From an uncultured Gammaproteobacteria bacterium (GTDB lineage Bacteria > Patescibacteriota > Patescibacteriia > Magasanikbacterales > UBA922): a stretch of 64,000 nucleotides of DNA. A program made the position numbers and the translations under genes. Shown piece after piece: positions 11,425 through 63,060 of the stretch (positions within the stretch are counted from its first letter, which is position 1; each line of letters begins with the position of its first letter). The notes under the pieces were generated by a model, which was not told the origin of the DNA, ran no database searches, and was given only the letters and a program-made list of their open reading frames with translations. The stretch is from positions 192,092 through 256,091 of the forward strand of contig CAYMVY010000002.1 of NCBI GenBank assembly GCA_964394405.1, written 5' to 3'.

Positions 11425-11467
11425 ATGGCAGTATTTTACGTTAAACTACCAAAAAAGTCTATTACTT

Positions 11468-11597
11468 TTACAACTTAAAACTCAAATGTCAAAACTCAAA
11501 ATTGTAACTAAAAATTCAAAACTAATATGCTAATTTAGTAAAGTTTTAACATTTAAGTTATAGTTTTACGTTTTGAGTTTTTAGCTTTGAGTTAACG
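11468..11597. repeat. AT-rich imperfect-palindrome intergenic element ('caaaactcaaa' family), full copy
   Basis: left arm aacttaaaactcaaatgtcaaaactcaaaattgtaactaaaaattcaaaact; right arm agttttaacatttaagttatagttttacgttttgagtttttagctttgagtt. Confidence 0.7.
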
Positions 11598-11612
11598 AGA
11601 ACTCATCATACA

Positions 11613-15223: not shown

Positions 15224-15322
15224 AACATCCGGGTTTTAAACAAAAATCATCAACTACTACGCGATATCGACGCCAGCCTGAGGCCGGCTACACCGCACTA
15301 GTTGAGACTTCACTATATTAAT

Positions 15323-15541
15323 TTAGAACCGATAGGTAATGCGTCCTTTTGACAGGTCATACGGCGTCATTTCGACTTTCACCTCGTCACCGACGTTGAG
15401 TCGAATATTGAACATTCGCATTTTCCCAGACAAATGGGCAATTACTTCGTGTTCGTTTTCAAGTTTCACTCGAAATTTGGCTCCTGGTAACAATTCATCA
15501 ATAGTACCTCGGACTTCCAAAAAATCGTTTTGCTTTCCCAT
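15323..15541 (-). CDS. infA: translation initiation factor IF-1
   Basis: 72-aa S1-like fold; [34 protein letters not shown] matches the IF-1 consensus. Confidence 0.9.
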
Positions 15542-15679
15542 GTAAATATGTTTAACGCTGACATTGTAGCGTATCTGACTAAAGTTGTCAAGAACTTCCA
15601 GATTGTGTCTAAAGACCTATATCTTGGCTTATTTTAGCATAATAATTTATATTTGACAAACTGTGCACAACTTGATAGT

Positions 15680-16046
15680 TTGCACCTGGTGGATGCAGAA
15701 ACAGTGTACTGCAGAAGTTTCCGGGTTCGTTGCTCGGCACTGGTCCTTGAGATAGTTCCTGGTGTGTAGAGCCATAGGCGGGAGACTGAGAGATCGTGTG
15801 CGGTGTCTACATGGAGCATCAAATAAGGAAAGATCCGAATAGTCGAAAGGCATCGGTACGGGCATTGCTCTCGAGCGGGCCTACTTACACGTCTTATCCT
15901 CGATTTGATGCGATGAAGTGGAGACGTCCCGCACGGAGGATCGTCGTTGAAATACCGCCCTCTAGGAGCGAAATACATTCGAAAGGATTCTGCATCCACC
16001 ACCCTACCCCGCCGACACTTGTGTCCGCGGGGTTTATCTTTTTTAT
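15680..16046 (+). ncRNA. candidate GC-rich structured non-coding transcript of about 360 nt, identity unknown
   Basis: consensus-like promoter (TTGACA at 15651) upstream; about 55% GC region with no credible ORF on either strand; ends in a strong intrinsic terminator; no RNase P, tmRNA or SRP motif found by eye. Confidence 0.25.
16007..16046 (+). terminator. intrinsic terminator (copy 1 of a duplicated terminator)
   Basis: CCCCGCCGACAC-tt-GTGTCCGCGGGG followed by TTTATCTTTTTT. Confidence 0.7.
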
Positions 16047-16112
16047 ACAGTTTGACCAAAACACTATTCTATAGTATACACTCCTTATCCCACACATCGG
16101 AGGAAAAGGGAT

Positions 16113-16475
16113 ATGACGATCAATAATCTCATGGGCACTCAGTTCGTTATCGCGTCCTACAAGATCAAGGATGAGCTCTTCATCCACGGAGGTCCGGATG
16201 CAAGAATAGTAGCAAAAGGAATCCTCCGGTACATGGTTCAAAGCACCCTCACAGAAAATCCTCAGGCAGATGTCAGCCGCCTGATGGAAGATGCAGTGGC
16301 GCTCACACCTACCCTCAAGTACCTGAGTGTCGACGAGCTCCACGAGATCACCAGTCGGGCAGCTGACAATGATCTCGATGCAAGAGTCTTCGAATTCATG
16401 CTTGAAGTACTGCGAGGGTCAGTCCCGACCGAAGACTCCTTCCTCGGGAAGGTGAAAGTTCCCACCATACCCTAA
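16113..16475 (+). CDS. hypothetical protein, GC-rich
   Basis: 120 aa; strong SD GGAGGAAAAGGGAT before the ATG; about 55% GC versus an AT-rich backbone. Confidence 0.5.
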   Translation: MTINNLMGTQFVIASYKIKDELFIHGGPDARIVAKGILRYMVQSTLTENPQADVSRLMEDAVALTPTLKYLSVDELHEITSRAADNDLDARVFEFMLEVLRGSVPTEDSFLGKVKVPTIP

Positions 16476-16493
16476 CCCAGCCGGAGAAACACC

Positions 16494-16706
16494 GTGCCTG
16501 ATCGATACTGCACCACTTGCAGAAAACCCATCAGCGATACCTCACGCCCGCATACACGCATGATCGATGCCATGAATGGAGGTGTCGAGATCATAGAGTG
16601 CGTGGGCGGCATACTTGTCGATGCATCTGCGCTTGGACGCAATCCGCGCTGGTCGTACATCGACTACTCGAGCCACGTGACCGGGATTCACCCCAACGAT
16701 GGCTGA
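16494..16706 (+). CDS. hypothetical small protein (GTG start), GC-rich
   Basis: 70 aa; GGAG 7 nt upstream of GTG; 18 nt after the preceding ORF; followed by a terminator. Confidence 0.4.
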   Translation: MPDRYCTTCRKPISDTSRPHTRMIDAMNGGVEIIECVGGILVDASALGRNPRWSYIDYSSHVTGIHPNDG

Positions 16707-16732
16707 GGTTCATTGGACCAGCTATTGCGCGA

Positions 16733-16769
16733 CCCCGCCGACACCATGTCCGCGGGGTTCATCTTTTTT
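16733..16769 (+). terminator. intrinsic terminator (copy 2, near-identical to 16007..16046)
   Basis: CCCCGCCGACACCATGTCCGCGGGG followed by TTCATCTTTTTTAT. Confidence 0.7.
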
Positions 16770-16806
16770 ATATGTACTTTTCTTTTCTCTTTTTTACTTT
16801 TAACCT

Positions 16807-17250
16807 TTAACTTTTTACTTCCTCTCTCTCCCGATACACCCAAAATCGAAATAGTGCAAAATTCCACAGTACCATGCACGCAATTGAAGCTACTCGTACC
16901 AATAGATATGGAAGTCCAAGAATCTCGTTTCCCAAATGCATCGCACCTACTGAGAACGCATAGTTCCATGTTGCGAGTATCAGATATCGTACTAATTCTT
17001 TGTGTGAAGGAGCCTTGCTTCCAAACGACCATTTTTTATTGAGAGTAAAATTAAACCCAAGCACTATTGCCTGATTGATGATAACTGACACGGTCGGATT
17101 CAGCTGGATCCACTCAACAAACACAACAAGCAATGCGAGATCAATCGCAACACTTGAAACTCCGACAATTACATATTTTGCGAATTTTACTCGCTCTGCC
17201 CACGCCATTGCGATAACATGAAGAATTTTTTGTTTCATAGATGTAGGCAA
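16807..17250 (-). CDS. GtrA family polysaccharide-synthesis membrane protein
   Basis: 147 aa, 4 TM helices; YVIVGVSSVAIDLALLVVFVEW...LNKKWSF matches GtrA-like. Confidence 0.65.
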   Translation of the reverse strand: MPTSMKQKILHVIAMAWAERVKFAKYVIVGVSSVAIDLALLVVFVEWIQLNPTVSVIINQAIVLGFNFTLNKKWSFGSKAPSHKELVRYLILATWNYAFSVGAMHLGNEILGLPYLLVRVASIACMVLWNFALFRFWVYREREEVKS

Positions 17251-17359
17251 GTATACGCGATATGTACATTTTATTCAAACAAAATAAGACTACAGTCGAC
17301 AGCCTACTGACTACAGTAAGATTCAAGATCTACTGTCTATAGTCTGTTGTCTATAGTCT

Positions 17360-18211
17360 TTAATTCTGTGCAATACTTGTCTTTCTCAAATACTTCGTCT
17401 TGATAATCGAATACGTGAATACCATCAAAAATACAATCCCCTGGAACAATACAATCGCTCCACCGGTCGACACGTCGAGGTAATAACTCACATATGAACC
17501 TGCAATCGAACTAACCACACTCACCGTTGTCGCAATACCAAGCATTGTGGGGAAACGTTTGGTCAGGACAAACGCAGTTGCTCCTGGGGTAATAAGCATG
17601 GCAATAACGAGAATAATACCAACAGTCTGAAGTGATACGGTAATCGTAATTGCGAGGAGTACTAGTAAGAAGTAGTGAACCACTTTTGCATTGATGCCGA
17701 TTGACTGCATATGCGTAGCGTCAAAGCAGTACAGTAGCAGAGTGCGTCTGAATGCAATGATGATGAGCGCAACCAGCAGTGAAACCCCCATCGTGTACCA
17801 TGCGGCACTATCTGAAATTCCCAGCACGTATCCAAAGAGTACATGCATCAGATCGACTGAGGAGACTGTTCTAGAAATCAATACCAGACCAAGCGCAAAG
17901 AGCATCGTAAATACAATACCCATGACCGCATCCTCTTTGATCTTGGTGTTTGTTTTGATTCCACCAATGAGAAGCACTGCGAGCAAGGCGAATACAAATG
18001 CTCCAATACTAAAGGGAATTCCAATAATGTATGCAAGTACCACACCTGGTAATACTGCATGCGAAATTGCATCGCCCAACAGTGACCACCCTTTCAAAAT
18101 AAGAAAACATGATAATAGCGCGCATACTGCGCCTACAACCGAAGAAACCAAAATGGCTTTTACCATGAAGGGGTATTGGAGTGGGGTTGTAATTATGTCG
18201 AGGATATTCAT
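17360..18211 (-). CDS. metal ABC transporter permease (ABC-3 family, ZnuB/MntB-like)
   Basis: 8-9 TM helices, ABC-3 signature region; start moved to ATG at 18211 (MNILDIITTP) because the ORF-track TTG start lies inside the repeat element. Confidence 0.8.
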   Translation of the reverse strand: MNILDIITTPLQYPFMVKAILVSSVVGAVCALLSCFLILKGWSLLGDAISHAVLPGVVLAYIIGIPFSIGAFVFALLAVLLIGGIKTNTKIKEDAVMGIVFTMLFALGLVLISRTVSSVDLMHVLFGYVLGISDSAAWYTMGVSLLVALIIIAFRRTLLLYCFDATHMQSIGINAKVVHYFLLVLLAITITVSLQTVGIILVIAMLITPGATAFVLTKRFPTMLGIATTVSVVSSIAGSYVSYYLDVSTGGAIVLFQGIVFLMVFTYSIIKTKYLRKTSIAQN

Positions 18212-18335
18212 AGTGTATAAACTCAAAGCTTAAAACTCAAAACGTAAAACTGTAACTCAAATCTAGAAACTAATTCTTCTATTTAGTTTTAAATTTTTAG
18301 TTGTAATTTTAAGTTTTGACATTTGAGTTTTGATT
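18212..18335. repeat. AT-rich imperfect-palindrome intergenic element ('caaaactcaaa' family)
   Basis: taaactcaaagcttaaaactcaaaacgtaaaactgtaactcaaatc ... agttgtaattttaagttttgacatttgagttttga. Confidence 0.7.
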
Positions 18336-18355
18336 TAAAAAATTACAAAGTCAAT

Positions 18356-19112: not shown

Positions 19113-20042
19113 TTATTCGCCTTTCAATCCTTTAATAATTGTCTCAACGGTGTGTTCAAGTAATTTCAAATATGTTGGTGCCGGTCCATCTGTAGCTGAT
19201 AATGAATCTACGTAGAGTACGCCTCCCATGCGGCTCCCTGATTCTCGTACTACTTCCTCTTGAATTCTCGGTTCAATCGTACTTTCACAAAATACTGCGG
19301 GAATCTTGTTTTTCTTTACTTCCTCTACCACATACGCAATTTGTTGTGGACTTCCTTGTGATTCATCATTGATTGCCCAGAGATATAATTCTTTCATTCC
19401 ATAATCTTTTGCAAGATAACTAAACGCTCCTTCACAGGTCGTCAAATATCTTTGACTCTCAGGAATTGTTGCAATAGATTCTCGCAATTTTGTATCGAGG
19501 GCTTGTATTTTTTCAGAATAGATTCGTGCTCGTTCGGCAAAATACTCACTATCACTAGGCGAAAGTTCGGCGAGTGCACTTCTAATATTTTCAACATAGG
19601 TAAGAGCTTGCGCAGGAGACATCCATGCGTGTGGATTTGGTTTATCCGCATATACACCTTCTGCGATAGGCACGATTTCAATTCCTTCACTAATCGTCAC
19701 ATGAGGAACGTCAGGAATACTGGTATAGAGTTTATTCGCCCATACTTCCAGATTCATTCCATTATCAAAAATAATATCAGCTTGTGATGCACGAATGAGG
19801 TCCCCTGGGGTTGGTTCATATCCATGAATTTCCACTCCGGGTTTGGTAAGTGAAATGGCTTCGATTCTATCTCCCCCGACTTCACGGACCATGTCTGAAA
19901 TAACGGTGAAGGTGCTAAGTACGGTAAGTTTGTCATTGACAATTTTTTCGCCCGCGACTCTTTTTTCGTGAAAGGCAAAAAATAAGATAGTCACTACAGC
20001 AAGCGCAATCGTAATAAGTAAAAATATTTTATTTTTGTTCAT
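19113..20042 (-). CDS. metal ABC transporter substrate-binding protein (cluster A-I, TroA/ZnuA/MntC-like)
   Basis: N-terminal signal/TM; conserved metal-ligand His contexts (EIHGYEPTP, PHAWMSP). Confidence 0.8.
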   Translation of the reverse strand: MNKNKIFLLITIALAVVTILFFAFHEKRVAGEKIVNDKLTVLSTFTVISDMVREVGGDRIEAISLTKPGVEIHGYEPTPGDLIRASQADIIFDNGMNLEVWANKLYTSIPDVPHVTISEGIEIVPIAEGVYADKPNPHAWMSPAQALTYVENIRSALAELSPSDSEYFAERARIYSEKIQALDTKLRESIATIPESQRYLTTCEGAFSYLAKDYGMKELYLWAINDESQGSPQQIAYVVEEVKKNKIPAVFCESTIEPRIQEEVVRESGSRMGGVLYVDSLSATDGPAPTYLKLLEHTVETIIKGLKGE

Positions 20043-20045
20043 AGT

Positions 20046-20180
20046 CTATTAACTCAAAGCTTAAAACTCAAAACGCAAAACGATAACTTAAGTCTAAAAA
20101 CTAATTATTATATTTAGTTTTTAATTTTTTAGTGTAGTTTTGAGTTTTGAAATTTGAGTTTTGAAATTTGAGTTTTGCGT
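20046..20180. repeat. AT-rich imperfect-palindrome intergenic element ('caaaactcaaa' family); right arm carries an internal tandem duplication
   Basis: aactcaaagcttaaaactcaaaacgcaaaacgataact ... agttttgagttttgaaatttgagttttgaaatttgagttttgcgtt. Confidence 0.7.
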
Positions 20181-20187
20181 TACACGT

Positions 20188-20595
20188 TTACACTTTCTTT
20201 ATCCTCTTCCCATGCGGATCCTTCTTCGGATTCCCCAAAAAATTTGCGAGACGTTTTATTACCTCATCTGAAAATGCATGTTCAAGTCTGTGCGCTTCGT
20301 CATGCACTTTTTCTGGGTCAATGCCCAGGATTGTGTGAAGAAAAAATTCGATGAGACGATGTTTGTAGGTGAGTTTTTCGGCAAGAGTTAATCCTTGCTT
20401 CGTAAGACTGATTCCACCACTTCGGTCGGTTTTTATTAACCGAGCGCGTTCGAGATCGTGAACGCGTTCTGAAACAGTCGATCTAGCGAGACCTAGATAG
20501 CGTGAAATGTCGATAATACGAACCTGTAGTCCCTGTTCATGGAGCGAATATACTGCTCGAACATAATCTTCCCTTGTAGGAGTTGTTTTTCGCAT
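20188..20595 (-). CDS. mntR: DtxR/MntR family metal-dependent transcriptional repressor
   Basis: N-terminal wHTH (ISRYLGLARSTVSERVHDLERARLI), then a metal-binding/dimerisation helix with His/Glu ligands; heads the metal ABC operon. Confidence 0.8.
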   Translation of the reverse strand: MRKTTPTREDYVRAVYSLHEQGLQVRIIDISRYLGLARSTVSERVHDLERARLIKTDRSGGISLTKQGLTLAEKLTYKHRLIEFFLHTILGIDPEKVHDEAHRLEHAFSDEVIKRLANFLGNPKKDPHGKRIKKV

Positions 20596-20604
20596 AAAGC
20601 ACTT

Positions 20605-20622
20605 TGTTCGTATATACGAACA
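20605..20622. promoter_or_regulatory. perfect 18-bp palindrome TGTTCGTATATACGAACA: candidate MntR autoregulatory operator overlapping a -10-like TATATA
   Basis: perfect dyad symmetry 10 nt upstream of the mntR ATG; centre reads as a -10 hexamer. Confidence 0.45.
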
Positions 20623-20806
20623 TCACTATATCACACTTGAACACTCTCGTCAAGGATCGAATTATCCACCAAATAAGCATTGACAAAGTGCTCATTTTGA
20701 GATACCCTTTCTTGAGTTTGACTATGCAGCATTCGCGGCACATCAAACTCTCGAGTCGACCAAAAGGAAGACCGAATTCACAACGACACAAAGGAGTACA
20801 ATCGCC

Positions 20807-21022
20807 ATGCCCAATACCATACAGGACCGGAACTCCAATCGGTACGATCTCCCAGAGTTCCCGAAGCGCGGTTCCCTGCGCCACGACGGCATGACCGCCG
20901 CCTCCACCACCTCCCCGTCCAGCAAACGTGGAGGAGAATACCAGGTCGGCCATGACCCGGAAGAGGAGGTCGAACCCACCCAGATGGTCAACCACTTCTT
21001 CGGCCGGGGACGGAGAGGGTAG
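20807..21022 (+). CDS. hypothetical small protein, GC-rich
   Basis: 71 aa; SD AAGGAG 10 nt upstream; promoter-like TTGACA-17-TACCCT at 20683-20711. Confidence 0.3.
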   Translation: MPNTIQDRNSNRYDLPEFPKRGSLRHDGMTAASTTSPSSKRGGEYQVGHDPEEEVEPTQMVNHFFGRGRRG

Positions 21023-21127
21023 GTCGGTTCGCAAGTTTCGAACGCGTACAACCACATACGGGCCACTCTGGTTCCCGCATGACGGAAGTACGCGTTCGGA
21101 CTCTCTCAAAAACGATATTCATTATTC

Positions 21128-21157
21128 AAACGCCTTATGGGCGATTTTTTGTTTTTT
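21128..21157 (+). terminator. intrinsic terminator (copy 1 of a duplicated terminator)
   Basis: CGCC-ttatg-GGCG followed by ATTTTTTGTTTTTT. Confidence 0.6.
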
Positions 21158-21177: not shown

Positions 21178-21206
21178 TTGACAGCATATTCACTCTATGC
21201 TAGTAT
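21178..21206 (+). promoter_or_regulatory. sigma70-type promoter TTGACA-17-TAGTAT
   Basis: exact -35 consensus, 17-bp spacer, TAnnnT -10. Confidence 0.55.
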
Positions 21207-21292
21207 CTTTTGAAGTTTGGACTGGCTATGCATTCGCTTGCCATGCGACCAGACTTTTTCTGTGACACCTGCGACGAGACAGGAGAGTCCTC

Positions 21293-21478
21293 ATGAAGGA
21301 TCCCCCGATGACCAGCATCAAGGGAAACAATCCCAACATTCCGGCGATGACGAACGGCAACAACCTCGACCGGCCGATGGACGCCGGCACCAAGAAGAAG
21401 GGCACCGACCGCGACCGCTACGCGCGCGCGAAGAAGATCTCGATGAAGGGGCACGGCGGCTCGAAGCCGGCGGCCTGA
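21293..21478 (+). CDS. hypothetical small basic protein, GC-rich
   Basis: 61 aa; SD GGAGAG 5 nt upstream of the ATG; alternative overlapping 98-aa ORF 21217..21513 is low-complexity. Confidence 0.35.
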   Translation: MKDPPMTSIKGNNPNIPAMTNGNNLDRPMDAGTKKKGTDRDRYARAKKISMKGHGGSKPAA

Positions 21479-21517
21479 TCGAGCGCGGCGAGCGAGCTCC
21501 TACCAACCCCTAGACCA

Positions 21518-21677
21518 AAGGAGGTCCTGGTGCGGAAGTACGCAGTGTTCTAGATGGGCTCACACCGAGCCCTCCTCGGCACCTTCCTAGGGCGACAACG
21601 ACGCCGTCGCCCACAACCTCTCAACGGAGGAAAGATGAGGAAGTACGCAGTGTTCTAGATAGGCTCACACCGAGCCT
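21518..21677 (+). repeat. tandem direct repeat (2 x about 42 bp, period 105 bp), each unit = SD + 7-codon mini-ORF M-R-K-Y-A-V-F + stop + GGCTCACACCGAGCC hairpin
   Basis: AAGGAGGtcctgGTGCGGAAGTACGCAGTGTTCTAGATGGGCTCACACCGAGCC at 21518; GGAGGAAAGATGAGGAAGTACGCAGTGTTCTAGATAGGCTCACACCGAGCC at 21626; both in the same frame. Confidence 0.6.
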
Positions 21678-21817
21678 CCCACGCGCCCGCACGCATCCCC
21701 TACCACGACGCAACCAACGGTACGGGAAATGCTTCGGACGCACCTGGCGCCGCGCCCTCGCATGAACTTCGGTTCAAGCGACGGGTGCGGCGCCAGACAC
21801 TCAATTCAATCATTCTG

Positions 21818-21846
21818 AAAACGCCTTATGGGCGATTTTTTGTTTA
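21818..21846 (+). terminator. intrinsic terminator (copy 2, identical core to 21128..21157)
   Basis: AAACGCCTTATGGGCGATTTTTTGTTT. Confidence 0.6.
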
Positions 21847-21861: not shown

Positions 21862-21890
21862 TTGACAGAAAGATATAATTATGCTACACT
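21862..21890 (+). promoter_or_regulatory. sigma70-type promoter TTGACA-17-TACACT upstream of the membrane protein gene
   Basis: exact -35, 17-bp spacer. Confidence 0.45.
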
Positions 21891-22058
21891 CTTCCGTTCG
21901 TCTTTGACGAAAGATCTTTACATGAATTTAGCCATTTCCATGCATTTGGTCAGTATTGTGATATTTCAATTTTTGAATTATTGCACAACTGACTAAAAAG
22001 CTGAGTGGTGAAGTTCACTATTTGGTTCATAAGTCAAAATGTCAGCCAGGAGGCAGAC

Positions 22059-23030
22059 ATGTTCGGTAAGCTCTTCGAGGTGTTCAACATCGAGAAGTGG
22101 TCGGGCCTCGGCCTGACGCTTCTCACCTGTGTTCTTCTCATGACGACTGCTCGTGCGCTTCTTGCGCCGGGTGTCGTCGAGTTCCCTTCCGAGCTCGCCT
22201 CGGATGGTGACTACTGGAGTATGATTGCGATGAGCGCACTGCTCATCGCGGTCGATGCCATGCTGATCGTGCTCGTGTCCTGGTCCTCACTCAACACGCC
22301 GAAAGACGTGATGGGTGTCGCCCTCATGGTCGGGTTGACGCATGTCGTCTTCCCGCTCGTGACCTTCGGCCTCACCGCCGGCGCGACCTTCCTCAGCCAG
22401 CACACGGGCCTCCCGATGTGGTTGGGGCAGGGCATCCTCACGGGCATCTACCTCCTCGCGTTCTACTTCGTTGTGTTCCACCTCCGTGAGGTGCATCGCG
22501 GTATCCGCGAGGGCGAGTCGGACAAGCTCAGCTCGGACCAACCCGCGTTCACGCGAGCGTGGCTGCGGGTGATCTGGCCCATCGTGTTTGCGGTCTCGGT
22601 CGACGCCCTTCTGGTGGGACCGGCTAAGATCGCCTTCATGGCCCGCTACACCGAGACGCAGTTCATGATGAGCTTCGTCTTGATCGGCGGGAGCGTGTTT
22701 GTGCTCGTGATGAGCGCTGGCCTCTTGGTCCTCGCCCTCAAGAAGTGGATCGACAACCACGCGCGGATCTCGAGGAAGGTCCACCAGTTCGACTGGCTTG
22801 GGTCACTCCTCCTCGTCCTCGTCTTCATCCACTTCTCGGTCTTCGCCTTGGTGTACGTGCTCTACACGTTCATCCCGAAGGCATGGATCCTCGAACCCCA
22901 GACCATCTGGAGCGCTACCGGCGCCATCTTCCTCCTCTACCTCATCTTCGGACGAGTGGGGGAGATCAAGAAGGCGAGCCTCGAACGGGCTGGACTGGGT
23001 CCGGCCGAAGTCGAGAATGAAGCAGCCTGA
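22059..23030 (+). CDS. hypothetical polytopic membrane protein, GC-rich (about 58% GC)
   Basis: about 10 TM helices; start set at ATG 22059 preceded by AGGAGG-cagac; the ORF-track start at 22005 lacks an SD. Confidence 0.6.
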   Translation: MFGKLFEVFNIEKWSGLGLTLLTCVLLMTTARALLAPGVVEFPSELASDGDYWSMIAMSALLIAVDAMLIVLVSWSSLNTPKDVMGVALMVGLTHVVFPLVTFGLTAGATFLSQHTGLPMWLGQGILTGIYLLAFYFVVFHLREVHRGIREGESDKLSSDQPAFTRAWLRVIWPIVFAVSVDALLVGPAKIAFMARYTETQFMMSFVLIGGSVFVLVMSAGLLVLALKKWIDNHARISRKVHQFDWLGSLLLVLVFIHFSVFALVYVLYTFIPKAWILEPQTIWSATGAIFLLYLIFGRVGEIKKASLERAGLGPAEVENEAA

Positions 23031-23113
23031 TAGCTGAACCGAACAACAGGTTGGGGACGACATCATCATCACATGCGTGATCGGTGATGCCTGTCCCCTG
23101 CCTTAGTCTACAT

Positions 23114-23170
23114 AAAAAGCAGATAGCTAGTAGCAAAATCTTTGATACTGTACTATCTGCTTTTTTATTT
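23114..23170. terminator. bidirectional intrinsic terminator between convergent genes
   Basis: AAAAAGCAGATAG...28-nt loop...CTATCTGCTTTTTTATTTT. Confidence 0.6.
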
Positions 23171-27786: not shown

Positions 27787-27815
27787 TTGACAAAAGCAAA
27801 GAAATATGGTATTAT
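27787..27815 (+). promoter_or_regulatory. sigma70-type promoter TTGACA-17-TATTAT
   Basis: exact -35, 17-bp spacer, near-consensus -10. Confidence 0.6.
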
Positions 27816-27877
27816 GATTTGTCCTTTTGGACCGTTCGCCATTGGTGAATGAACTCTGTGACAAGGATACCAGAAAA

Positions 27878-28087
27878 ATGCTGAGGCATGAGTTTCTCCA
27901 GCAGTTCGATGCTATTGGCCGCAATCATGCGGTCAAAATCATCCAGTCCAACGGCGGAGAGTACGTGGCGAGGTGGCCTGATGTGAAGATCCACGCTCGA
28001 CACGTGAAACTCCCGGATGCCACCGCCCCCGCCGCCATCCGTGTGCCGTACGACGAGATCAAAGGTGTCACGAAGTACTCCGGGTAG
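27878..28087 (+). CDS. hypothetical small protein, GC-rich (start ATG 27878; alternative TTG 27827)
   Basis: 70-86 aa; AAGGAT 9 nt upstream of the ATG; about 55% GC. Confidence 0.35.
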   Translation: MLRHEFLQQFDAIGRNHAVKIIQSNGGEYVARWPDVKIHARHVKLPDATAPAAIRVPYDEIKGVTKYSG

Positions 28088-28184
28088 ACCGCGCAAGCAC
28101 ACCCAGATCTCACGCCCTGCCGTCCCGTGTTTGTCCCCCGACGTACGTCGAGGTCTCGACGAACACGGGCGGCACAAACACATT

Positions 28185-28207
28185 CACCGAAATACGGTGT
28201 TTTTTTA
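28185..28207. terminator. intrinsic terminator (T-run overlaps the mnmA stop)
   Basis: CACCG-aaata-CGGTG followed by TTTTTTT; preceded by a larger GC-rich stem CCGTCCCGTGTT...AACACGGGCGG. Confidence 0.55.
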
Positions 28208-29290
28208 TTGTATAACTCCCCCACCCAAACATTCGCCTTCTTTATATAACACTGCAAACTGACCTGGACTTATGGCACGCTGAGGATTAGTGCAGGCAAT
28301 AGTAATTGTATGCGGATTGGAAACGCGGACACTGCATTTCTCTAATTTTTGTCGATGGCGAAAGCGTACCATGCAATCAAATGATGAACTGGCTGGTTCA
28401 CCTGAAATCCAATTCATTTGCTCCACTTTTATTTCTGTAGTAAAAAGCATTGGATCATTTTCATTCCCAACAATTAGTTCATTTTTTTTAATATCTTTAC
28501 CCACCACATACAGCGGTCGCTCTCCCCCAGCTTGCGCAAATCCGTGTCTTTGACCAATGGTATAAAATGGAAGTCCCTCGTGCTCACCAATGATTTCTCC
28601 ATTCTGTTTCCGTACACTCCCCTTCCTGCCTTTAATTCGTTTGCTCAAAAATTCTTTCATTGATACTTCACCGATAAAGCAGATTCCCATGCTTTCTTCT
28701 TTTTTCGCAGTTGGGAGATCAAACTTCTCCGCAAGTTCTCTCACTTCACTTTTTTTGTACTTCCCAATTGGAAACATTGCGTGCGAGAGTTGCTCTTGAT
28801 TGAGTTGGTGCAAAAAGTATGTCTGATCTTTTTCTGTATCAACTGACTCAAGCAAATGATATTTGTCACCTTTTTTCTCTACCTCTGCATAATGCCCAGT
28901 TGCGAGAATATCAAATCCTTTACTCTTAGCAACCTCAAGCCATGCTCCATACTTGATCAAACTGTTGCACAAAATATCTGGGTTTGGTGTGCGCCCTGCT
29001 TCGTATTCACGATACACGTACTCAAGTACTTTTTCTTTATATTCTTTTCTGAAATCAAGTTTGAGTAATGGAATGTCTAATCGAGCGGCTACTCTAAGTG
29101 CGTCTCGATATTCGGGAATCCAACATGATTCACCATCAGTAGTAATAGCCTCGTCCGCAGTATCATAATTGATCATGAATGCGCCCGTAACATCATATCC
29201 TGCGCGAACCAAAAGAGCGGCAGCGACTGAAGAGTCGACACCACCAGACATTGCGATGAGGATTTTCTGTTTTTTATTTTTAGAAAGCAT
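28205..29290 (-). CDS. mnmA: tRNA-specific 2-thiouridylase MnmA
   Basis: PP-loop SGGVDSS, catalytic Cys contexts, 361 aa. Confidence 0.9.
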   Translation of the reverse strand: MLSKNKKQKILIAMSGGVDSSVAAALLVRAGYDVTGAFMINYDTADEAITTDGESCWIPEYRDALRVAARLDIPLLKLDFRKEYKEKVLEYVYREYEAGRTPNPDILCNSLIKYGAWLEVAKSKGFDILATGHYAEVEKKGDKYHLLESVDTEKDQTYFLHQLNQEQLSHAMFPIGKYKKSEVRELAEKFDLPTAKKEESMGICFIGEVSMKEFLSKRIKGRKGSVRKQNGEIIGEHEGLPFYTIGQRHGFAQAGGERPLYVVGKDIKKNELIVGNENDPMLFTTEIKVEQMNWISGEPASSSFDCMVRFRHRQKLEKCSVRVSNPHTITIACTNPQRAISPGQFAVLYKEGECLGGGVIQ

Positions 29291-33097: not shown

Positions 33098-33228
33098 GTA
33101 ATAACTCAAAACGTAAAATTCAAAGCTCAAAACTGAAACTAAAAACTAAAATCTTTCAGCAAAAAGAAAGTAGGATTTTAAAATTTGAATTGTAGTTTTT
33201 AGTTTTGACATTTGAGTTTTGAGTTATT
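33098..33228. repeat. AT-rich imperfect-palindrome intergenic element ('caaaactcaaa' family); right arm overlaps the ftsW stop codon
   Basis: aactcaaaacgtaaaattcaaagctcaaaactgaaactaaaaact ... agtttttagttttgacatttgagttttgagtt. Confidence 0.7.
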
Positions 33229-34336
33229 TTGCATGTTTACTCACATTCACGACGACACCCAGTGCTGCCATACTAATCATAAGTGCAGTCCCCCCATGAC
33301 TTATAAAGGGAAGTGGCACTCCTGTCAATGGCAGCAACCCCAGCATTGCACCTATATTCATCAGTGTCTGAATACCAAACCAACTCATAATACCGAGCAC
33401 CAACAATCGTCCAAATTCATCAGAAGTATGTTCGGCAATTGAAAATCCACGGAAAAATAACAATGTATATGCAGCAATGCACGCTACCATAACTACAAAC
33501 CCCAATTCTTCTGCGGCTACAGCAAAAATACTGTCTGCATGGACTTCTGGTAAATATTGAAATTTTTGGCGTGAATGTCCCAAGCCTAATCCAAACCATC
33601 CACCCGTACCAATCGCCAAAAATGCCTGATTCATCTGATACCCCGTACCCTCTGGGTCAAGTTCTGGATGCAAGAACGTGACAAACCGATCTGCCCGATA
33701 TGGTGCCGCGTAAATCATCACGCCAAATGCGATGACCCCGAGCAAAAATAAAATCAATAAATGGGACAATTTTGCTCGTGCGAAAAAAAACATGAGTACA
33801 ATTAGCGATCCCAAAATAAACATACCTCCGGTATCTGGTTGTAGTGCTACCAGAACTAGCGGAATTGTTGCTACACATAGTATGGAGAGAAACCCGTGTA
33901 CTTGTCTGATCGCATTTCCTGCAGAAGAAAGTACTGCGGCTAGATATATGATAATCCCCAGTTTTGCTGCCTCAATCGGCTGAAAAGAAAAATTACCTAG
34001 TACAATCCAACTTTTTGCAAACGTATTATTATTTGATCCAATGCCTGGGATAAATACAAGAATGAGAAGCGCGACTGCAAGAATAAACACAGGTAATGCA
34101 TATTTTTTCCATACCGTATAATTGATCTTTGACATTACCAAAAACAATAAAATTCCTGGAAAAAAGCCAAAAAACAGCTGCCGCTTGATAAAAAAATACG
34201 CATCTGAAAACCGATCGAGACCTACCGCAACTCCTGCCGAACTAAGTACTAACAATCCAAACAAAATAATAGCGCCTGCGTAGCCAATAAATACATAATC
34301 AGCGCTATTGTGTGTAAGAGTCTGGGCTCGACGCAT
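33224..34336 (-). CDS. ftsW: SEDS family peptidoglycan glycosyltransferase FtsW (or RodA)
   Basis: 370 aa, 10 TM helices; position upstream of murG favours FtsW. Confidence 0.75.
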   Translation of the reverse strand: MRRAQTLTHNSADYVFIGYAGAIILFGLLVLSSAGVAVGLDRFSDAYFFIKRQLFFGFFPGILLFLVMSKINYTVWKKYALPVFILAVALLILVFIPGIGSNNNTFAKSWIVLGNFSFQPIEAAKLGIIIYLAAVLSSAGNAIRQVHGFLSILCVATIPLVLVALQPDTGGMFILGSLIVLMFFFARAKLSHLLILFLLGVIAFGVMIYAAPYRADRFVTFLHPELDPEGTGYQMNQAFLAIGTGGWFGLGLGHSRQKFQYLPEVHADSIFAVAAEELGFVVMVACIAAYTLLFFRGFSIAEHTSDEFGRLLVLGIMSWFGIQTLMNIGAMLGLLPLTGVPLPFISHGGTALMISMAALGVVVNVSKHAK

Positions 34337-35230: not shown

Positions 35231-35336
35231 ACTAACTCAAAACTTAAAACTCAAAGTTCAAAACTACAACTAAAAACTAAAAAGTTTTAAGCTTTAAGTT
35301 ATAGTTTTACGTTTTGACATTTGACTTTTGAATTTA
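35231..35336. repeat. AT-rich imperfect-palindrome intergenic element ('caaaactcaaa' family)
   Basis: actaactcaaaacttaaaactcaaagttcaaaactacaactaaaaact ... aagttatagttttacgttttgacatttgacttttgaattt. Confidence 0.7.
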
Positions 35337-35341
35337 ATACC

Positions 35342-36151
35342 ATGCTTCTGGAAGCTGTGAAACAAATCCTACTCTCAACATTAATCCAAATCGGCATTGT
35401 TTTCGGTTTATTTTTCATTCTTGGATTTATCCATTCGATTATTTACAAACTGACGATCCGATTTTTTTCTAGAGTTTTTGGATGGACTGGGATTATTGTC
35501 ACCGGAGTCATCGGTACACCGATCCACGAAATCTCACACTGGCTCATGGCAAAAATTTTTCGCCACAAAATACACTCAGTAAGTCTCTTTAGCCCAGACC
35601 GAAATTCGGGAAAACTCGGACATGTCGAGCATAGCTACGATCGCAGGAGCGCCTACCAAACTATGGGGAATTTTTTTATTGGATCCTCCCCTATTATTTT
35701 TTGCTCACTCGCACTGATCACCTTATTGTATTTTTTCTTTCCCAACCCTTCAGCTATTATTACTCCATTGATCACCCTTCCTCACTCAATCCAGGAGTTT
35801 CTTCATGCGTGGAGTACTTCATTTGGCAATGCATGGGCACAGATTGATGTTACTAGTTGGAAATTTTGGATATTCTTTTTTCTCTCACTTTCAATTGCAC
35901 TACACATGTCACCAAGTTCCTATGACCAAAAAACAATGTGGAAGGGTTTCTTCCACATTTCACTCCTTATGCTTCTAGTAAATATTATATTAACGCTTAC
36001 TAAAGTCCGATATACTGAATTTCTTCTTTCTCATGTTTCCGCACTCTACACCTTCGCCTGGGTATTAGTCTATGCAATCGGAGTTTCAGTACTTTTTCTT
36101 ATACTATCTTTTATACTCTACAGCATCAAAAGAATTTTTGTCCGTAGATAA
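35342..36151 (+). CDS. membrane protein with an HExxH motif (DUF3267-like putative zincin peptidase)
   Basis: HEISHWLMA between TM helices; start moved to ATG 35342 because the ORF-track TTG start is inside the repeat. Confidence 0.45.
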   Translation: MLLEAVKQILLSTLIQIGIVFGLFFILGFIHSIIYKLTIRFFSRVFGWTGIIVTGVIGTPIHEISHWLMAKIFRHKIHSVSLFSPDRNSGKLGHVEHSYDRRSAYQTMGNFFIGSSPIIFCSLALITLLYFFFPNPSAIITPLITLPHSIQEFLHAWSTSFGNAWAQIDVTSWKFWIFFFLSLSIALHMSPSSYDQKTMWKGFFHISLLMLLVNIILTLTKVRYTEFLLSHVSALYTFAWVLVYAIGVSVLFLILSFILYSIKRIFVRR

Positions 36152-44395: not shown

Positions 44396-44522
44396 TAAAA
44401 TTCAAAACTTAAAATTCAAAGCTCAAAACTGAAACTAAAAACTTAAAACTTTTTATTCTCATATTAATTAATTTTTAGATTTGAGTTATAGTTTTACGTT
44501 TTGAGATTTAAGTTTTGAGTTT
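44396..44522. repeat. AT-rich imperfect-palindrome intergenic element ('caaaactcaaa' family)
   Basis: aaattcaaaacttaaaattcaaagctcaaaactgaaactaaaaact ... agttatagttttacgttttgagatttaagttttgagtt. Confidence 0.7.
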
Positions 44523-44525
44523 ATA

Positions 44526-45776
44526 TTATACTTCATGAAACTTCTCAGTACTTGGTCTGTATTTTAACACAAACACGAGCCAACCGAAGAATATGAGCAC
44601 TCCAGAAATTATGGTGGGTAAACTAAGATGGAATGCAACGATAAACCCTGCAATCATCGGAGGAATTGCAGAACCAAGTGACTGGAGAGATGCAGTAATT
44701 CCCATAATTTCTCCCTGCGATTGTTTGTCTGCTGAATTTGAAACTACGGCGCTCATATTCGGCATCGTAAGCCCATTGCAGATCGCGACCAGTGGCATGA
44801 GAACATACACCCAGCCGAGGCTTGGTACCAAGAGATGTGACACAATCGCAAGCGGAAGCGCAAATAAGGCAATTTTGATAATCTGCTCAGGTTTTTTGTG
44901 TTTTGCTGCAATACGCACGAGTGTTCCCTGTACAATCGCGATCCAGATACCCAAATACCCAAAAATAAATCCAATATCTCTCTGTGTCGCGCCGAATTTC
45001 TCGATCATGTAGACCTGAAAAAACTGGATGAAGAATGCAAACCCAAAAATCTGGAGAAAGAGTACGGTGAATACCACACGCATATTCTTCATCTGAAATG
45101 CGCGAATCGTATTTTTGATACCTGTAAACGGACTAATATGAATATGTTTGTTTCTCTCAGTTAATGTTTCCTTGAACCATTTCCCCACTGCACTGATATT
45201 CATGAGTGATAATCCTGCTGCAAACCAGAATGGGGTCGCAAAATTGAACCAGCCAACAATCGTCGAATCAGATAATATTCCACCAACAAAGGGACCAAAA
45301 ATAAATCCGAGCCCGAATGCCATACCAATCAACCCGAAGTTTTTTGCCTTTTCTGCCGGGTCGCTCACATCTGCGACAGCTGAGTGTACGACTGATACAT
45401 TTCCACCCGTAATTCCATCGATCAATCGCGAGAGGAAGAGGAGCCAGAGCTGCCCTGTAATAATTCCGATTGCAAATAAGAGGTATCCAAAACAGGTTCC
45501 GGCAAGCGAGATCATCATTACAGGCTTTCGCCCATATTTGTCTGCAAATGCTCCGATAATCGGAGCTGCAAAAAACATGGCGAGCGGATAGATCGCGGTC
45601 AAAAATCCGAGGAGAACAGTTCTCGTTTCATAACTCACCGAAGCTGGAAGAAATGCGTCTCCGAGAAATAGTGGAGCGATAATCGGCGCAATCAACCCGA
45701 TTCCTATCATGTCGAGGAAAATGACGAGGAAAAGCGAGAGAAGTGAGAGTTTTTTCTTGTCCATAGAGGCAATCAA
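44526..45776 (-). CDS. MFS transporter (DHA1-like drug:H+ antiporter)
   Basis: 12 TM helices; MFS motif A (GAFADKYGRKPV). Confidence 0.8.
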   Translation of the reverse strand: MIASMDKKKLSLLSLFLVIFLDMIGIGLIAPIIAPLFLGDAFLPASVSYETRTVLLGFLTAIYPLAMFFAAPIIGAFADKYGRKPVMMISLAGTCFGYLLFAIGIITGQLWLLFLSRLIDGITGGNVSVVHSAVADVSDPAEKAKNFGLIGMAFGLGFIFGPFVGGILSDSTIVGWFNFATPFWFAAGLSLMNISAVGKWFKETLTERNKHIHISPFTGIKNTIRAFQMKNMRVVFTVLFLQIFGFAFFIQFFQVYMIEKFGATQRDIGFIFGYLGIWIAIVQGTLVRIAAKHKKPEQIIKIALFALPLAIVSHLLVPSLGWVYVLMPLVAICNGLTMPNMSAVVSNSADKQSQGEIMGITASLQSLGSAIPPMIAGFIVAFHLSLPTIISGVLIFFGWLVFVLKYRPSTEKFHEV

Positions 45777-46884: not shown

Positions 46885-47544
46885 CTATTTGAATACTACT
46901 GTTTGATAGATCTGATCAACGACACTGTCGAGGTCAAAAAATTTAGCTTCTGATACACACTCTTCCTGTTTTGCTCCTGTATATTGTGTACACGCAGGTG
47001 TCCGCACACTTAGTTGGAATACCACTACCCCATCCCCGCTCTTAGTCACATATCCGTAGTCTTGTACCTCTTTTTCATTTAGTGAGTTTGATATTGTCCT
47101 ACAATATTCACGTCCACCTACGATTCTTTTTTCTGTTTTTCCATTTGCCTGTGTCTCAAATCCACCTTCCACACACGTGTATACAGACATCGTACTTTTT
47201 TCAATCACTGGTGGCCAATAGGTCGGATGTACATATGTTGTACCAAAATCAGTAGGATACTTGAATGTGAGATCATTGGAGGTATATGTCTGCCAGGTAT
47301 CCATTCCTTCTGCCGGAGGTACTGCACCTTCTCCTGGACATGCTTCGAATTCACACTTGGGTCCAGTGCGGCCCACATATGATCCATCTGGACAGAGTTT
47401 TGCGTCCATAGTACATACCACTGTTCCGCCATCGGTGATCATATCCTCGGTGTTTTCTTTAGTTGTATTTTTGTACCAGAAAAACCCGATACAAATAACT
47501 ATAACCGCAATAATAATCATGAGTAGTGCTGATGTTTTATTCAT
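46885..47544 (-). CDS. Cys-rich secreted/membrane-anchored protein, paralog A
   Basis: N-terminal anchor; shared block CTMDAKLCPDGSYVGRTGPKCEFEACPG; 8 Cys. Confidence 0.5.
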   Translation of the reverse strand: MNKTSALLMIIIAVIVICIGFFWYKNTTKENTEDMITDGGTVVCTMDAKLCPDGSYVGRTGPKCEFEACPGEGAVPPAEGMDTWQTYTSNDLTFKYPTDFGTTYVHPTYWPPVIEKSTMSVYTCVEGGFETQANGKTEKRIVGGREYCRTISNSLNEKEVQDYGYVTKSGDGVVVFQLSVRTPACTQYTGAKQEECVSEAKFFDLDSVVDQIYQTVVFK

Positions 47545-47554: not shown

Positions 47555-48310
47555 TTAGTTCGTCTGCATACCAAGCGTGAACGCATTCCAATTGTAGGTA
47601 GTGAATATCTGATCTACAAACCGATCAATACTAAATATTGCTCGCTCTGCTTCACATGTTTTTCTCTCTGTCTCATTGTAATTCGCGCATTGTGATTGTT
47701 GCACTTCGAATTTGAAGGTGACTGTTCCTTTTTCATACGCGGTCACATATGTGTAGGTATTATAGGTACTCCCTGCAGCACCCTCACTCTGTGTTGTTAC
47801 ACAATATTCTTGTCTACCGACAGTATGTTTTTCTGTTTTTCCACTTACTACCACACTCTCATCGGTGCCTGCAAGATTACATGCATACGGGGTAGCAGAA
47901 GAAATAGTAACAAACGCCTTATCAGTACTACGCATGTATTTGGTAGGCAACATATCAATATAGAGGAAAGATTTTGCTTGCTCACCATCGATGGCTACGC
48001 CCCATGCAATTTTATTTTCTCCACCAATGCTCGTTGGACATGCTTCGAATTCACACTTGGGTCCAGTACGTCCTACATACGATCCATCGGGACACATCAT
48101 CGTATCCATCGTACATGCCACTGGCTCGGTCGTCGTAGTATTCACGACCACAACGGTTGGAGGTGCTGAGGGACCATAGAGAACTTTGTCGTAGACGATG
48201 TAGCCGAGTGCTCCAATAAGTGCAAGAATGATGACAACAAGTAGTGCTTTCATATGTACGGTGCTTAAGAGTGATAGTCCTAGTGTAGCACGGTATACCA
48301 TTGTTGTCAT
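47555..48310 (-). CDS. Cys-rich secreted/membrane-anchored protein, paralog B
   Basis: shared block CTMDTMMCPDGSYVGRTGPKCEFEACP; the true start is possibly the internal MKALLVVIIL (about 48253). Confidence 0.5.
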   Translation of the reverse strand: MTTMVYRATLGLSLLSTVHMKALLVVIILALIGALGYIVYDKVLYGPSAPPTVVVVNTTTTEPVACTMDTMMCPDGSYVGRTGPKCEFEACPTSIGGENKIAWGVAIDGEQAKSFLYIDMLPTKYMRSTDKAFVTISSATPYACNLAGTDESVVVSGKTEKHTVGRQEYCVTTQSEGAAGSTYNTYTYVTAYEKGTVTFKFEVQQSQCANYNETERKTCEAERAIFSIDRFVDQIFTTYNWNAFTLGMQTN

Positions 48311-51379: not shown

Positions 51380-51395
51380 ATCTTTTGTTTTATTT

Positions 51396-53026: not shown

Positions 53027-53029
53027 ACG

Positions 53030-54778: not shown

Positions 54779-54781
54779 ACT

Positions 54782-55798: not shown

Positions 55799-55843
55799 AT
55801 ATTTTTAGGGCACTAAAAACCCACCTTTTTCAGGCGGATTTTA

Positions 55844-55875
55844 GGGGGTTATAGCCCGGCCGGGCAGGGTATCAG
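55844..55875. repeat. direct repeat copy 1: GGGGGTTATAGCCCGGCCGGGCAGGGTATCAG (contains the 12-bp GC palindrome GCCCGGCCGGGC)
   Basis: near-identical copy at 56516..56548; the pair brackets a single gene. Confidence 0.6.
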
Positions 55876-56441: not shown

Positions 56442-56515
56442 ACAATACGACTAACATTGATATAGATACACGTAAATTCTCCAATGCGAAAGTATTTTGT
56501 TCATGCAATAATTCT

Positions 56516-56548
56516 CGGGGGTTATAGCCTGGCCGGGCCGGGTATAAG
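56516..56548. repeat. direct repeat copy 2: GGGGGTTATAGCCTGGCCGGGCCGGGTATAAG
   Basis: 28/32 identity with copy 1. Confidence 0.6.
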
Positions 56549-57902: not shown

Positions 57903-57931
57903 TGACAACAGGGGTCTTTTTGGCTAGAGTC
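57903..57931 (+). promoter_or_regulatory. sigma70-type promoter TTGACA-17-TAGAGT
   Basis: exact -35; followed by a GCTTACC-gcagt-GGTAAGC hairpin in the leader. Confidence 0.5.
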
Positions 57932-57992
57932 ATACGCTTACCGCAGTGGTAAGCAGATGATCAACCGTCCATTCGGAAACAGGAGTCTAGAG

Positions 57993-58199: not shown

Positions 58200-58343
58200 C
58201 AGGGGCCACACACCGGGCCCCCCCAATGACCGAGATATCGCTTGTATGCATATCTCGGTCGCTTTCATTTTAGGGGTATATACAGACAAAAATAAGACTT
58301 ATCCCCATATATACCTTGCAATACATAGTACCTTATACTATAG

Positions 58344-63037: not shown

Positions 63038-63060
63038 AAAACTGGTAGGAAAGACACTGC

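Follow-up and report, generated by a model that had tools for sequence, protein, structure and literature searches.

We analysed a 64-kb window of contig CAYMVY010000002.1, which is the whole stretch of DNA considered here, with a focus on a pair of near-identical terminator-like repeats in the gap between the genes infA and gtrA. The gene order in this part of the window is rpsK, rpsM, rpmJ, infA (15323-15541, minus strand), a gap of 1265 bp and gtrA (16807-17238, minus strand). These genes are followed by a metal ABC (ATP-binding cassette) transporter consisting of a permease, an ATPase and ZnuA, a DtxR-family repressor (20188-20595, minus strand), a second gap of 2.6 kb, guaC and alaS. The neighbourhood of the infA-gtrA gap consists of core genes (rpsM, rpsK, rpoA, infA and alaS). 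The closest public genomes are metagenome-assembled genomes (MAGs) labelled Magasanikbacteria/Magasanikiibacteriota and Paceibacteria, all of which belong to the candidate phyla radiation (CPR), or Patescibacteria. The small genomes of this group are commonly portrayed as streamlined, with few mobile elements. A second assembly of the same sequencing run (Logan, SRR12404947) gives an identical sequence for the region, and homologues of the small transcription units described below, here called modules, are present in MAGs from separate studies, which argues against an assembly artefact.

Two terminator copies in the infA-gtrA gap

The gap contains two copies of an imperfect repeat, at 16006-16047 (ACCCCGCCGACACTTGTGTCCGCGGGGTTTATCTTTTTTATA) and 16732-16772, which match in 38 of 42 alignment columns with three mismatches and one gap, and whose start positions are separated by 726 bp. 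The similarity ends sharply at both edges of the repeat, beyond which the flanks are unalignable. The sequence occurs only at these two positions in the window, and no occurrences are expected in shuffled sequences. Both copies fold into a hairpin in which a C-C mismatch separates an outer stem of 7 bp from an inner stem of 4 bp, with a U-tract after the hairpin. The fold energies are -18.6 and -21.2 kcal/mol, corresponding to z-scores of -5.2 and -4.3, and none of the shuffled sequences folded as well. The differences between the copies are located in the loop and at one position in the tail, and the stem, including the C-C mismatch, is unaltered. Both copies are predicted to be strong Rho-independent terminators, and the near-identical hairpin and T-run repeats reported in an earlier note on this DNA are thus present as described. 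The two repeats divide the gap into two units, modules A and B, with the following features, in which the promoters were read from the sequence.

15653-16047, plus strand: module A, whole unit, with promoter, 320-nt body and terminator
15653-15681, plus strand: predicted promoter of module A, with -35 box TTGACA (15653-15658), 17-nt spacer and -10 box TAGTTT (15676-15681)
15688-16005, plus strand: body of module A, GC 0.52, with no conserved open reading frame (ORF) in the alignment with the related locus L003
16006-16047, plus strand: repeat copy 1, predicted terminator of module A, with hairpin at 16007-16032 and U-tract at 16033-16047
16052-16772, plus strand: module B, whole unit, with promoter, p120, p70 and terminator
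16052-16080, plus strand: predicted promoter of module B, with -35 box TTGACC, 17-nt spacer and -10 box TATACA
16113-16475, plus strand: p120, an ORFan of 120 aa, with Shine-Dalgarno (SD) motif GGAGG at 16099-16103, 9 nt upstream
16494-16706, plus strand: p70, 70 aa with one CxxC motif, SD motif GGAGA and GTG start
16732-16772, plus strand: repeat copy 2, predicted terminator of module B, as judged from its fold and from its right flank, which is homologous to the flank after the L003 terminator

Both modules are antisense to the flanking core genes infA and gtrA. The promoter of module B begins within 5 nt of the end of copy 1, and copy 2 ends 35 nt ahead of the stop codon of the convergent gtrA. 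Since copy 1 appears to terminate module A and is followed by the promoter of module B, the pair is best described as the predicted terminators of two transcription units that are stacked head to tail, and not as the ends of one insert. The 684 bp between the repeats contain solely p120 and p70, and no integrase. This agrees with the earlier note in that exactly two SD-led, GC-rich small genes are enclosed (GC 0.52 and 0.56, as compared to 0.41 for the genome), but not with its suggestion that a target or att duplication flanks a single insert, as the left copy belongs to a separate upstream unit.

Module A has no conserved ORF but is partly conserved in L003, which contains a single terminator with a hairpin that is identical to that of copy 1 at 31 of 31 positions. 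Besides the hairpin, the alignment retains the promoter, including the -35 box and its adjoining bases (TTGACAAACTNTGCACAA), and the two blocks GTGTAGAGYCATAGGCGGGAGACT and CGTTGAAATACCGCCCTCT. The rest of the module has diverged, with indels and no common reading frame. The body folds better than shuffled sequences (minimum free energy z-score -3.4). It showed no match to any Rfam family, neither at gathering thresholds over the whole window, where three tRNAs were the only matches, nor in E-value mode over the infA-gtrA and dtxR-guaC gaps, where matches were at chance level only. Module A is thus a candidate for a novel small RNA or a decayed gene.

The first gene of module B, p120, has one homologue among 1.84 billion representative proteins searched with HMMER. 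This protein, P0002, shows 46% sequence identity (E-value 3.7e-20) and is encoded in the infA-gtrA gap of the related locus L020, that is, at the same locus as p120, which indicates that p120 is a real gene. The homologue in L020 is preceded by a matching promoter layout (TTGACC, 17 nt, TATAAG). A word-index search against 5.8 billion proteins returned only p120 itself. No match to p70 was obtained with tblastn in any of the loci fetched, and the L020 version of module B lacks p70. Neither of the two proteins showed a match in Pfam, NCBIfam, PHROGs or PADLOC, including to any known toxin, antitoxin or defence family. The AlphaFold model of p120, based on an alignment of two sequences, is of low confidence, with a predicted local distance difference test (pLDDT) score of 65 and a predicted template modelling (pTM) score of 0.52. 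A Foldseek search of the model against the PDB gave nothing at E < 0.3, and no functional inference was drawn from it.

Turnover of modules at the same gap in related genomes

To compare the gap with its counterparts in other genomes, related loci were identified by a scan of species-representative genomes with the ABC permease and by contig look-ups with homologues of p120 and gtrA. The resulting set contains 11 related loci, which represent nine distinct alleles, with L031 and L032, and likewise L004 and L033, being pairwise alike; L032 and L033 duplicate alleles that are already counted among the nine. Most of these loci keep the full infA-gtrA synteny, while the content of the gap varies. 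Three of the nine alleles contain no module, five contain one, and one contains two, as does the window. The contents of the gap are as follows.

Window: modules A and B
L003: module A only, with a single terminator and collinear flanks on both sides
L020: module B' (p113, 46% identical to p120, without p70) and module E (p98)
L031/L032: module F (p101, homologous to p98)
L002: module C (96-aa ORF)
L005 and L006: module D (70-aa ORF)
L004/L033 and L030: no module, gap of 120-145 bp

Across the nine related alleles, the gap is thus occupied by six unrelated module families, or by none. The difference between the window and L003 is exactly one repeat plus one module (726 bp). The earlier note had proposed a search for an empty-site allele, and L003 represents such an allele, with the left flank, one terminator and the right flank but no p120/p70 module.

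A given terminator is not bound to one kind of module. The stem CCCCGCCGACAC...G(T/C)(T/C)CGCGGGG closes three unrelated modules, namely module A in the window and L003, module B in the window, and module F in L032. The two modules in L020, B' and E, are each closed by a variant of the same terminator family, and in one of these the C-C mismatch is replaced by a G-C pair. The tail GGGG-T(C/T)TT.C.TTTTTAT is common to all nine infA-gtrA terminators. By loop and tail, two subtypes can be discerned: a loop of 4 nt with the tail TTT in copy 1 and L003, and a loop of 3 nt with the tail TTC in copy 2 and L032. Further terminators in the window bear little resemblance to these (CACCGAAATACGGTG, CCCGCGAAAGCGGGG and GACCGAGATATCGC), and the family is therefore specific to this locus. 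The repeats are thus not a ubiquitous terminator consensus, which the earlier note had named as an observation that would speak against its interpretation.

Between the window and L002, the flanking genes are highly similar (about 98% DNA identity for gtrA and about 93% for infA), whereas the sequence from approximately 15595 to approximately 16825 is unalignable. The similar flanks around an unalignable interior suggest that recombination in the flanking genes has exchanged the gap as a whole. The identity to L002 is mosaic along the flanks, with 99% for the gtrA protein, 85% for the ATPase and 83% for dtxR (window 15300-17300), indicating that recombination is frequent among these lineages. 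We also considered a short target-site duplication around single modules, in the form of a TTATAC-like motif that is present on both sides in L032 and also in the empty gap of L030, but rejected this candidate because the sequence is too T/A-rich and too variable.

The dtxR-guaC array and other elements in the window

A second gap with stacked modules is located downstream of dtxR, where the relatives contain an array of 1 to 6 modules each, with at least six in L003. Such arrays are absent from the more distant Paceibacteria (L008-L017). In each module, a TTGACA promoter and a leader precede a small GC-rich ORF, which is followed by a long and variable GC-rich hairpin, an A/T-rich linker and a short terminator. 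At least 11 of the array modules close in AAACGCC-loop-GGCGATTTTTTGTTT. The array in the window contains the following modules.

20680-21154, plus strand: array module 1, with predicted promoter TTGACA (20680-20685), p71 (20807-21022), a long 3' hairpin and the terminator 21119-21154
21178-21845, plus strand: array module 2, with predicted promoter (21178-21206), p61 (21293-21478), two 7-codon mini-ORFs and, in its 3' part, a long hairpin (21744-21796) and the terminator repeat 21810-21845
21862-23165, plus strand: array module 3, with predicted promoter (21862-21890), a leader of about 170 nt, a 323-aa membrane ORFan (22059-23030) and a terminator at about 23108-23165

The terminators of the first two modules represent the second repeat pair of the earlier note, placed there around a module of about 690 bp. 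This pair was confirmed, with 33 of 36 positions identical between 21119-21154 and 21810-21845 and a spacing of 691 bp. The terminator hairpin is just 5 bp long and is preceded by the long 3' hairpin.

As in the infA-gtrA gap, both the content and the order of the modules vary among the relatives. The order in the window is p71, p61 and the 323-aa membrane ORFan, while it is p61, p71 and then a different ORF in L002, and homologous modules are placed in another order in both L002 and L004. The loop of the p61 terminator is TTAT in the window, as in the p71 terminator, but TCACC in the L002 orthologue, suggesting that exchange or conversion has occurred at the terminators. The last 115 nt of the p71 module, comprising the hairpin, the linker and the terminator, are at least 90% identical in the window, L002 and L003, whereas the coding part diverges and is barely alignable in L002. 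Similarly, the ORF of module 3 differs between genomes that have its flanking parts in common, namely the leader (L002, L003 and L020) and the 3' end of the module (L002 and L020).

Three small elements are located in and next to this array. The leader of about 170 nt (21897-22058) precedes unrelated ORFs, encoding the 323-aa membrane protein and proteins of 150 aa and 66 aa, and is located near dtxR and the metal ABC transporter. It showed no match to any Rfam family and is a candidate cis-regulatory RNA. The 7-codon mini-ORF, which has a strong SD motif, follows p61 or its homologue and encodes MRKYAVF* in the window (21530-21553 and 21635-21658), MKLFAVF* in L002 and MKKYAVF* in L004. It is doubled in the window inside a 48-nt repeat, with each copy followed by the hairpin GGGCTC-ACACC-GAGCCC, and could be a leader, an arrest peptide or a gene for a tiny peptide. 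A perfect palindrome, TTCGTATATACGAA, at 20611-20624 just upstream of dtxR is kept in L002-L006 and L020, and is probably the operator of the DtxR repressor itself.

The cargo genes differ in composition from the core genes. The GC content at third codon positions (GC3) is 0.60-0.92 for the ORFs of the modules (for example at 21293-21478, 22059-23030 and 57993-58199) and 0.28-0.46 for the core genes, and the foreign composition of the cargo ORFs is accompanied by coding periodicity. The high GC3 supports the reading frames of the modules and sets the cargo genes apart. The module families are still GC-rich in diverged relatives, and a recent transfer from a GC-rich donor therefore does not explain their composition. 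None of the module proteins showed a significant match in Pfam, NCBIfam, PHROGs or PADLOC, and all of the cargo consists of ORFans.

We found no integrase, transposase or other mobility gene beside any of the three repeat loci or in the approximately 40 kb of the window with Pfam-annotated gene calls, and no transposase domain in the protein-family searches. Nor was there any link to phages, as both the terminator patterns and the proteins were absent from IMG/VR (four scans of viral contigs) and from phage and plasmid databases, and the proteins had no match in PHROGs. A scan of metagenomes from the Joint Genome Institute (JGI) for the terminator pattern gave two matches, both on GC-rich contigs from outside the CPR, which were taken as chance matches because of their unrelated context.

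Three more GC-rich units with a predicted promoter, an ORFan and a terminator are located between core genes, but as solitary units, at 27790-28215 (plus strand), 57904-58275 (plus strand) and 62510-63095 (minus strand). They encode ORFans of 69, 68 and 152 aa, respectively, and two of the three run antisense to the adjacent genes. In the unit near 28 kb, a long hairpin, a linker and a short terminator are arranged as in the dtxR array.

The third repeat pair of the earlier note is of another kind.

55838-55875, minus strand: repeat 3 copy a, consisting of a hairpin and a CTATAACCCCC motif, on the left border of a DpnII-type restriction-modification island
55947-56441, minus strand: p164, an ORFan with a zinc-ribbon-like CxxC...CxxC motif, GC 0.37, enclosed by repeat 3
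56511-56548, minus strand: repeat 3 copy b

The repeat itself is real, with 34 of 38 positions identical and a spacing of 673 bp, but the claim that it has the same architecture did not hold, since it is not terminator-like and the enclosed gene is AT-rich and located on the minus strand. Read on this strand, the repeat consists of a weak hairpin plus CTATAACCCCC(T/G)A(A/G)AAT, with no U-tract and a z-score of about 0. Copy a is located directly upstream of a minus-strand terminator and the promoter of the Dam methylase gene. Four contigs from relatives (L023-L026), in which the Dam genes are 91-93% identical, contain a single repeat 3 motif and no p164, such that an empty-site allele exists also for this pair. 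The adjacent island (50480-55798, GC 0.32-0.34) encodes two methylases, one of them Dam, together with a GmrSD-family enzyme and DpnII. Across many CPR contigs with differing contexts, one of which has a serine recombinase beside it, the Dam-like methylase is 74-93% identical, suggesting that the restriction-modification island is mobile.

Two other types of repeated sequence were observed in the window. Imperfect long palindromes built from 7-nt units, with (AAAACTC/AAAACGT)n, a short centre and (GAGTTTT/ACGTTTT)n, are located at 11464-11604, 18207-18347, 20038-20192, 33103-33236, 35234-35345 and 44399-44532. They are intergenic, in some cases within operons, such as between the ABC ATPase and permease genes, and look like a family of intergenic repeats in the style of repetitive extragenic palindromes and bacterial interspersed mosaic elements (REP/BIME). 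Furthermore, the adjacent paralogues at 46885-47544 and 47555-48310 represent a tandem duplication of 700 bp with segments that are 75-84% identical.

Proposed origin of the modules and comparison with known systems

We consider it moderately probable that the modules are chromosomal mini-genes, similar to the morons of phages, which reside in recombination hot spots, and that the shared terminator serves both as an insulator and as a recombination handle. According to this proposal, a few intergenic gaps in the patescibacterial chromosome of a Magasanikbacteria-like clade would be stacking sites for autonomous mini-genes. Each of these would start with a TTGACA-type promoter of its own and end with a Rho-independent terminator, and between the two would lie a short leader and either one or two small GC3-rich ORFs or a non-coding body. 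Each terminator copy would stop the plus-strand transcript before it enters the next unit, gtrA or the metal ABC transporter operon in antisense. A hot spot would retain one resident terminator family, reused by each module placed there and evolving slowly under selection on the hairpin, and the two copies of pair 1 would be near-identical because of this. Modules could be gained, lost and reordered by recombination between terminator copies, either by unequal exchange or by excision and re-integration of a promoter-ORF-terminator segment. This route is suggested by the length differences of exactly one repeat plus one module and by the terminator loops that seem to have moved between neighbours. 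Alternatively, the entire gap could be swapped by homologous recombination in the flanking core genes, and neither route would need a dedicated recombinase. The cargo would then represent dispensable accessory small proteins.

Several points weigh against this proposal. The L003 allele could equally be a deletion derivative of an ancestor with two modules and two terminators (A-T-B-T), and an ancestral A-B-E array with differential deletions explains the window, L003, L020 and L032 equally well. The junction between a terminator and the next promoter is beyond simple homologous recombination of single-module alleles. Such a junction presupposes an illegitimate join, a circular intermediate or a duplication event, and the compared loci showed none of these. 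At 36-42 bp, the homology is close to the minimum for RecA-dependent exchange. The units from promoter to terminator are predictions from the sequence alone, the comparison extends over no more than 64 kb from the source genome and approximately 12 relatives, and the very high GC3 that persists in the families of diverged genomes is not explained by the model.

Could the modules have arisen in place, by tandem duplication of one ancestral module whose interior has diverged beyond recognition while the constrained terminator stayed alike? We find this unlikely. The modules in the dtxR-guaC array do share leader motifs (GTTTGGACTGGCTATGCATTCGC vs GTTTGACTATGCAGCATTCGC) and the 3' layout with a long hairpin, an A/T linker and a short terminator. 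Moreover, small and probably disordered proteins evolve very fast, and the untranslated regions are better conserved than the coding sequences. However, module A has no ORF while module B has two, and there is no residual similarity between them beyond the 42 nt. The 46% identity between p120 and its homologue in L020 shows that this protein is not diverging without limit, and the same terminator also closes the unrelated module F in L032. To explain six unrelated families at one gap, many duplications would be needed, with complete erasure every time. A coincidence, whether as a general terminator consensus or as an assembly artefact, is highly improbable and can be considered effectively refuted. 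All terminators need a GC-rich stem and a T-tract, and the two unrelated JGI contigs carry the same stem by chance, but a match in 38 of 42 columns that includes the C-C mismatch and the tail is not expected in shuffled sequences. The differing terminators elsewhere in the window, the identical hairpin in L003, the second assembly and the homologous modules in MAGs from other studies all speak against it.

We also consider it improbable, and slightly more so than tandem duplication, that the modules are captured by a dedicated system in which the terminator hairpin acts as a structure-specific attachment site, similar to attC, with the recombinase encoded elsewhere. This would be an unrecognised system of the Patescibacteria, with terminators in place of attC and no adjacent IntI, and the composition of the cargo would mark a mobile gene pool that is private to the clade. 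It would fit with ORFan cassettes in the same orientation between which lie imperfect hairpins that are conserved together with their tail, with the clean empty-site allele, with the shuffled order of the cassettes between relatives, and with repeat boundaries that coincide with the start of the hairpin and the end of the T-tract in independent pairs. However, there is no integrase or transposase beside the arrays or in the approximately 40 kb with Pfam-annotated gene calls, and the RYYYAAC and GTTRRRY cores are absent, with GTTTATC and GTTCATC following the stem. The hairpins are 13-26 nt rather than 50-150 nt long, every cassette has its own predicted promoter, and the breakpoints between the window and L002 are located in the flanking genes and not at the hairpin. 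In addition, the terminator family differs per hot spot, and a single recombinase would not obviously serve them all. Such a system would be much more interesting, but nothing that we have seen requires it. The target or att duplication of the earlier note is not supported: the terminator of pair 1 also closes the unrelated module F in another genome, the terminator family is common to every module within each hot spot, and no recombinase, transposase or attC-like core is present at any of the three loci.

The moron-like interpretation can be further assessed by comparison with known systems. Transposons and insertion sequences have a transposase, terminal inverted repeats and short (2-15 bp), exact target duplications. 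Here, there is no transposase domain, the repeats are imperfect and 36-42 bp long, and copy 1 belongs to the upstream unit. Likewise, there is no integrase inside the repeats of pair 1, as would be the case for an integrative element bounded by attL and attR. Deletion or duplication between short direct repeats, whether RecA-dependent or by slipped-strand events, is a general mechanism, and the difference between the window and L003 is indeed precisely one repeat unit together with the DNA enclosed by the copies. However, this mechanism explains loss and changes in copy number, and not how unrelated modules came to share a repeat.

Integron arrays, including those with uniform attC sites of the Vibrio cholerae repeat (VCR) type and the integrase-less clusters of attC sites known as CALINs, consist of mostly ORFan cassettes in the same orientation with imperfect hairpin repeats that are uniform per array. 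Their attC sites are about 50-150 nt long with RYYYAAC...GTTRRRY cores, and the cassettes are promoterless and expressed from a common promoter, Pc. The modules resemble these in that they form arrays of ORFans in the same orientation with imperfect hairpins, and in that content and order vary between relatives. They differ in that there is no intI or attI, although intI is not required for a CALIN, and in that the flanking genes are infA/gtrA and dtxR/guaC. The repeats are 36-42 nt long, with GTTTATC or GTTCATC (pair 1) or GATTTTTTGTTT (pair 2) after the stem. Each module has a TTGACA-17-TAnnnT site (15653, 16052, 20680, 21178 and 21862), and the repeat is predicted to be a working transcription terminator. 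In the absence of attC cores and with promoters of their own, the modules are thus neither integrons nor CALINs.

The earlier note held that the arrangement was not a described feature, which is too strong, since phage morons and the minimal mobile elements of Neisseria are close analogues. In the concept of Hendrix and Juhala, as defined in PMC3714127, a moron is an autonomous unit with a sigma-70-like promoter on one side and a factor-independent terminator on the other. Close relatives lack the interruption that it makes in an otherwise contiguous region, and its G+C content is unlike that of its neighbours. The layout of a moron is described there as limiting the interference with adjacent genes and allowing transfer as a functional cassette by recombination (PMC3714127). 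The modules are similar in that they have a predicted promoter upstream and a predicted factor-independent terminator downstream, in that empty or different alleles are found in L003, L004, L030 and L033, and in that their GC3 is deviant. They differ from morons in their location in the core chromosome, beside the ribosomal protein and infA cluster and not in a prophage, and no phage homology was found in the searches above. The stacking in arrays with one terminator family per locus is outside the moron concept.

The minimal mobile elements of Neisseria (Saunders and Snyder 2002, as cited in PMC1797815) are alternative, unrelated small cassettes between the same conserved flanks. They have no mobility gene, and their exchange is attributed to homologous recombination in the flanks (PMC1797815). 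Similarly, unrelated modules without mobility genes are found at one syntenic infA-gtrA site, and the breakpoints between the window and L002 are located in the flanks, consistent with flank recombination. However, neither internal repeated terminators nor head-to-tail stacking are part of the definition of minimal mobile elements, and natural transformation is unproven for this CPR clade. Moreover, the modules carry very small, GC3-rich ORFans, and each comes with a predicted promoter and terminator of its own.

No established principle is altered by these findings. They suggest that the clade has intergenic slots in which tiny, self-sufficient genes stack, swap and disappear between close relatives, with the shared terminator as the sole visible handle for their turnover. 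If the proposal is correct, it provides a rule for finding the fast-evolving accessory genes of uncultured symbionts, which would be GC3-rich, antisense to core genes and bounded by a promoter and a terminator. It would also provide a naturally occurring example of a terminator that at the same time supplies portable homology for the gain and loss of genes, as well as a collection of small ORFan proteins and candidate small RNAs with a probable bearing on the interaction with hosts or phages. In comparison to the known systems, it is new that the modules stack head to tail with a single terminator family at each locus, that their GC3 is extreme, that their cargo consists of ORFans and that they occur in a CPR lineage.

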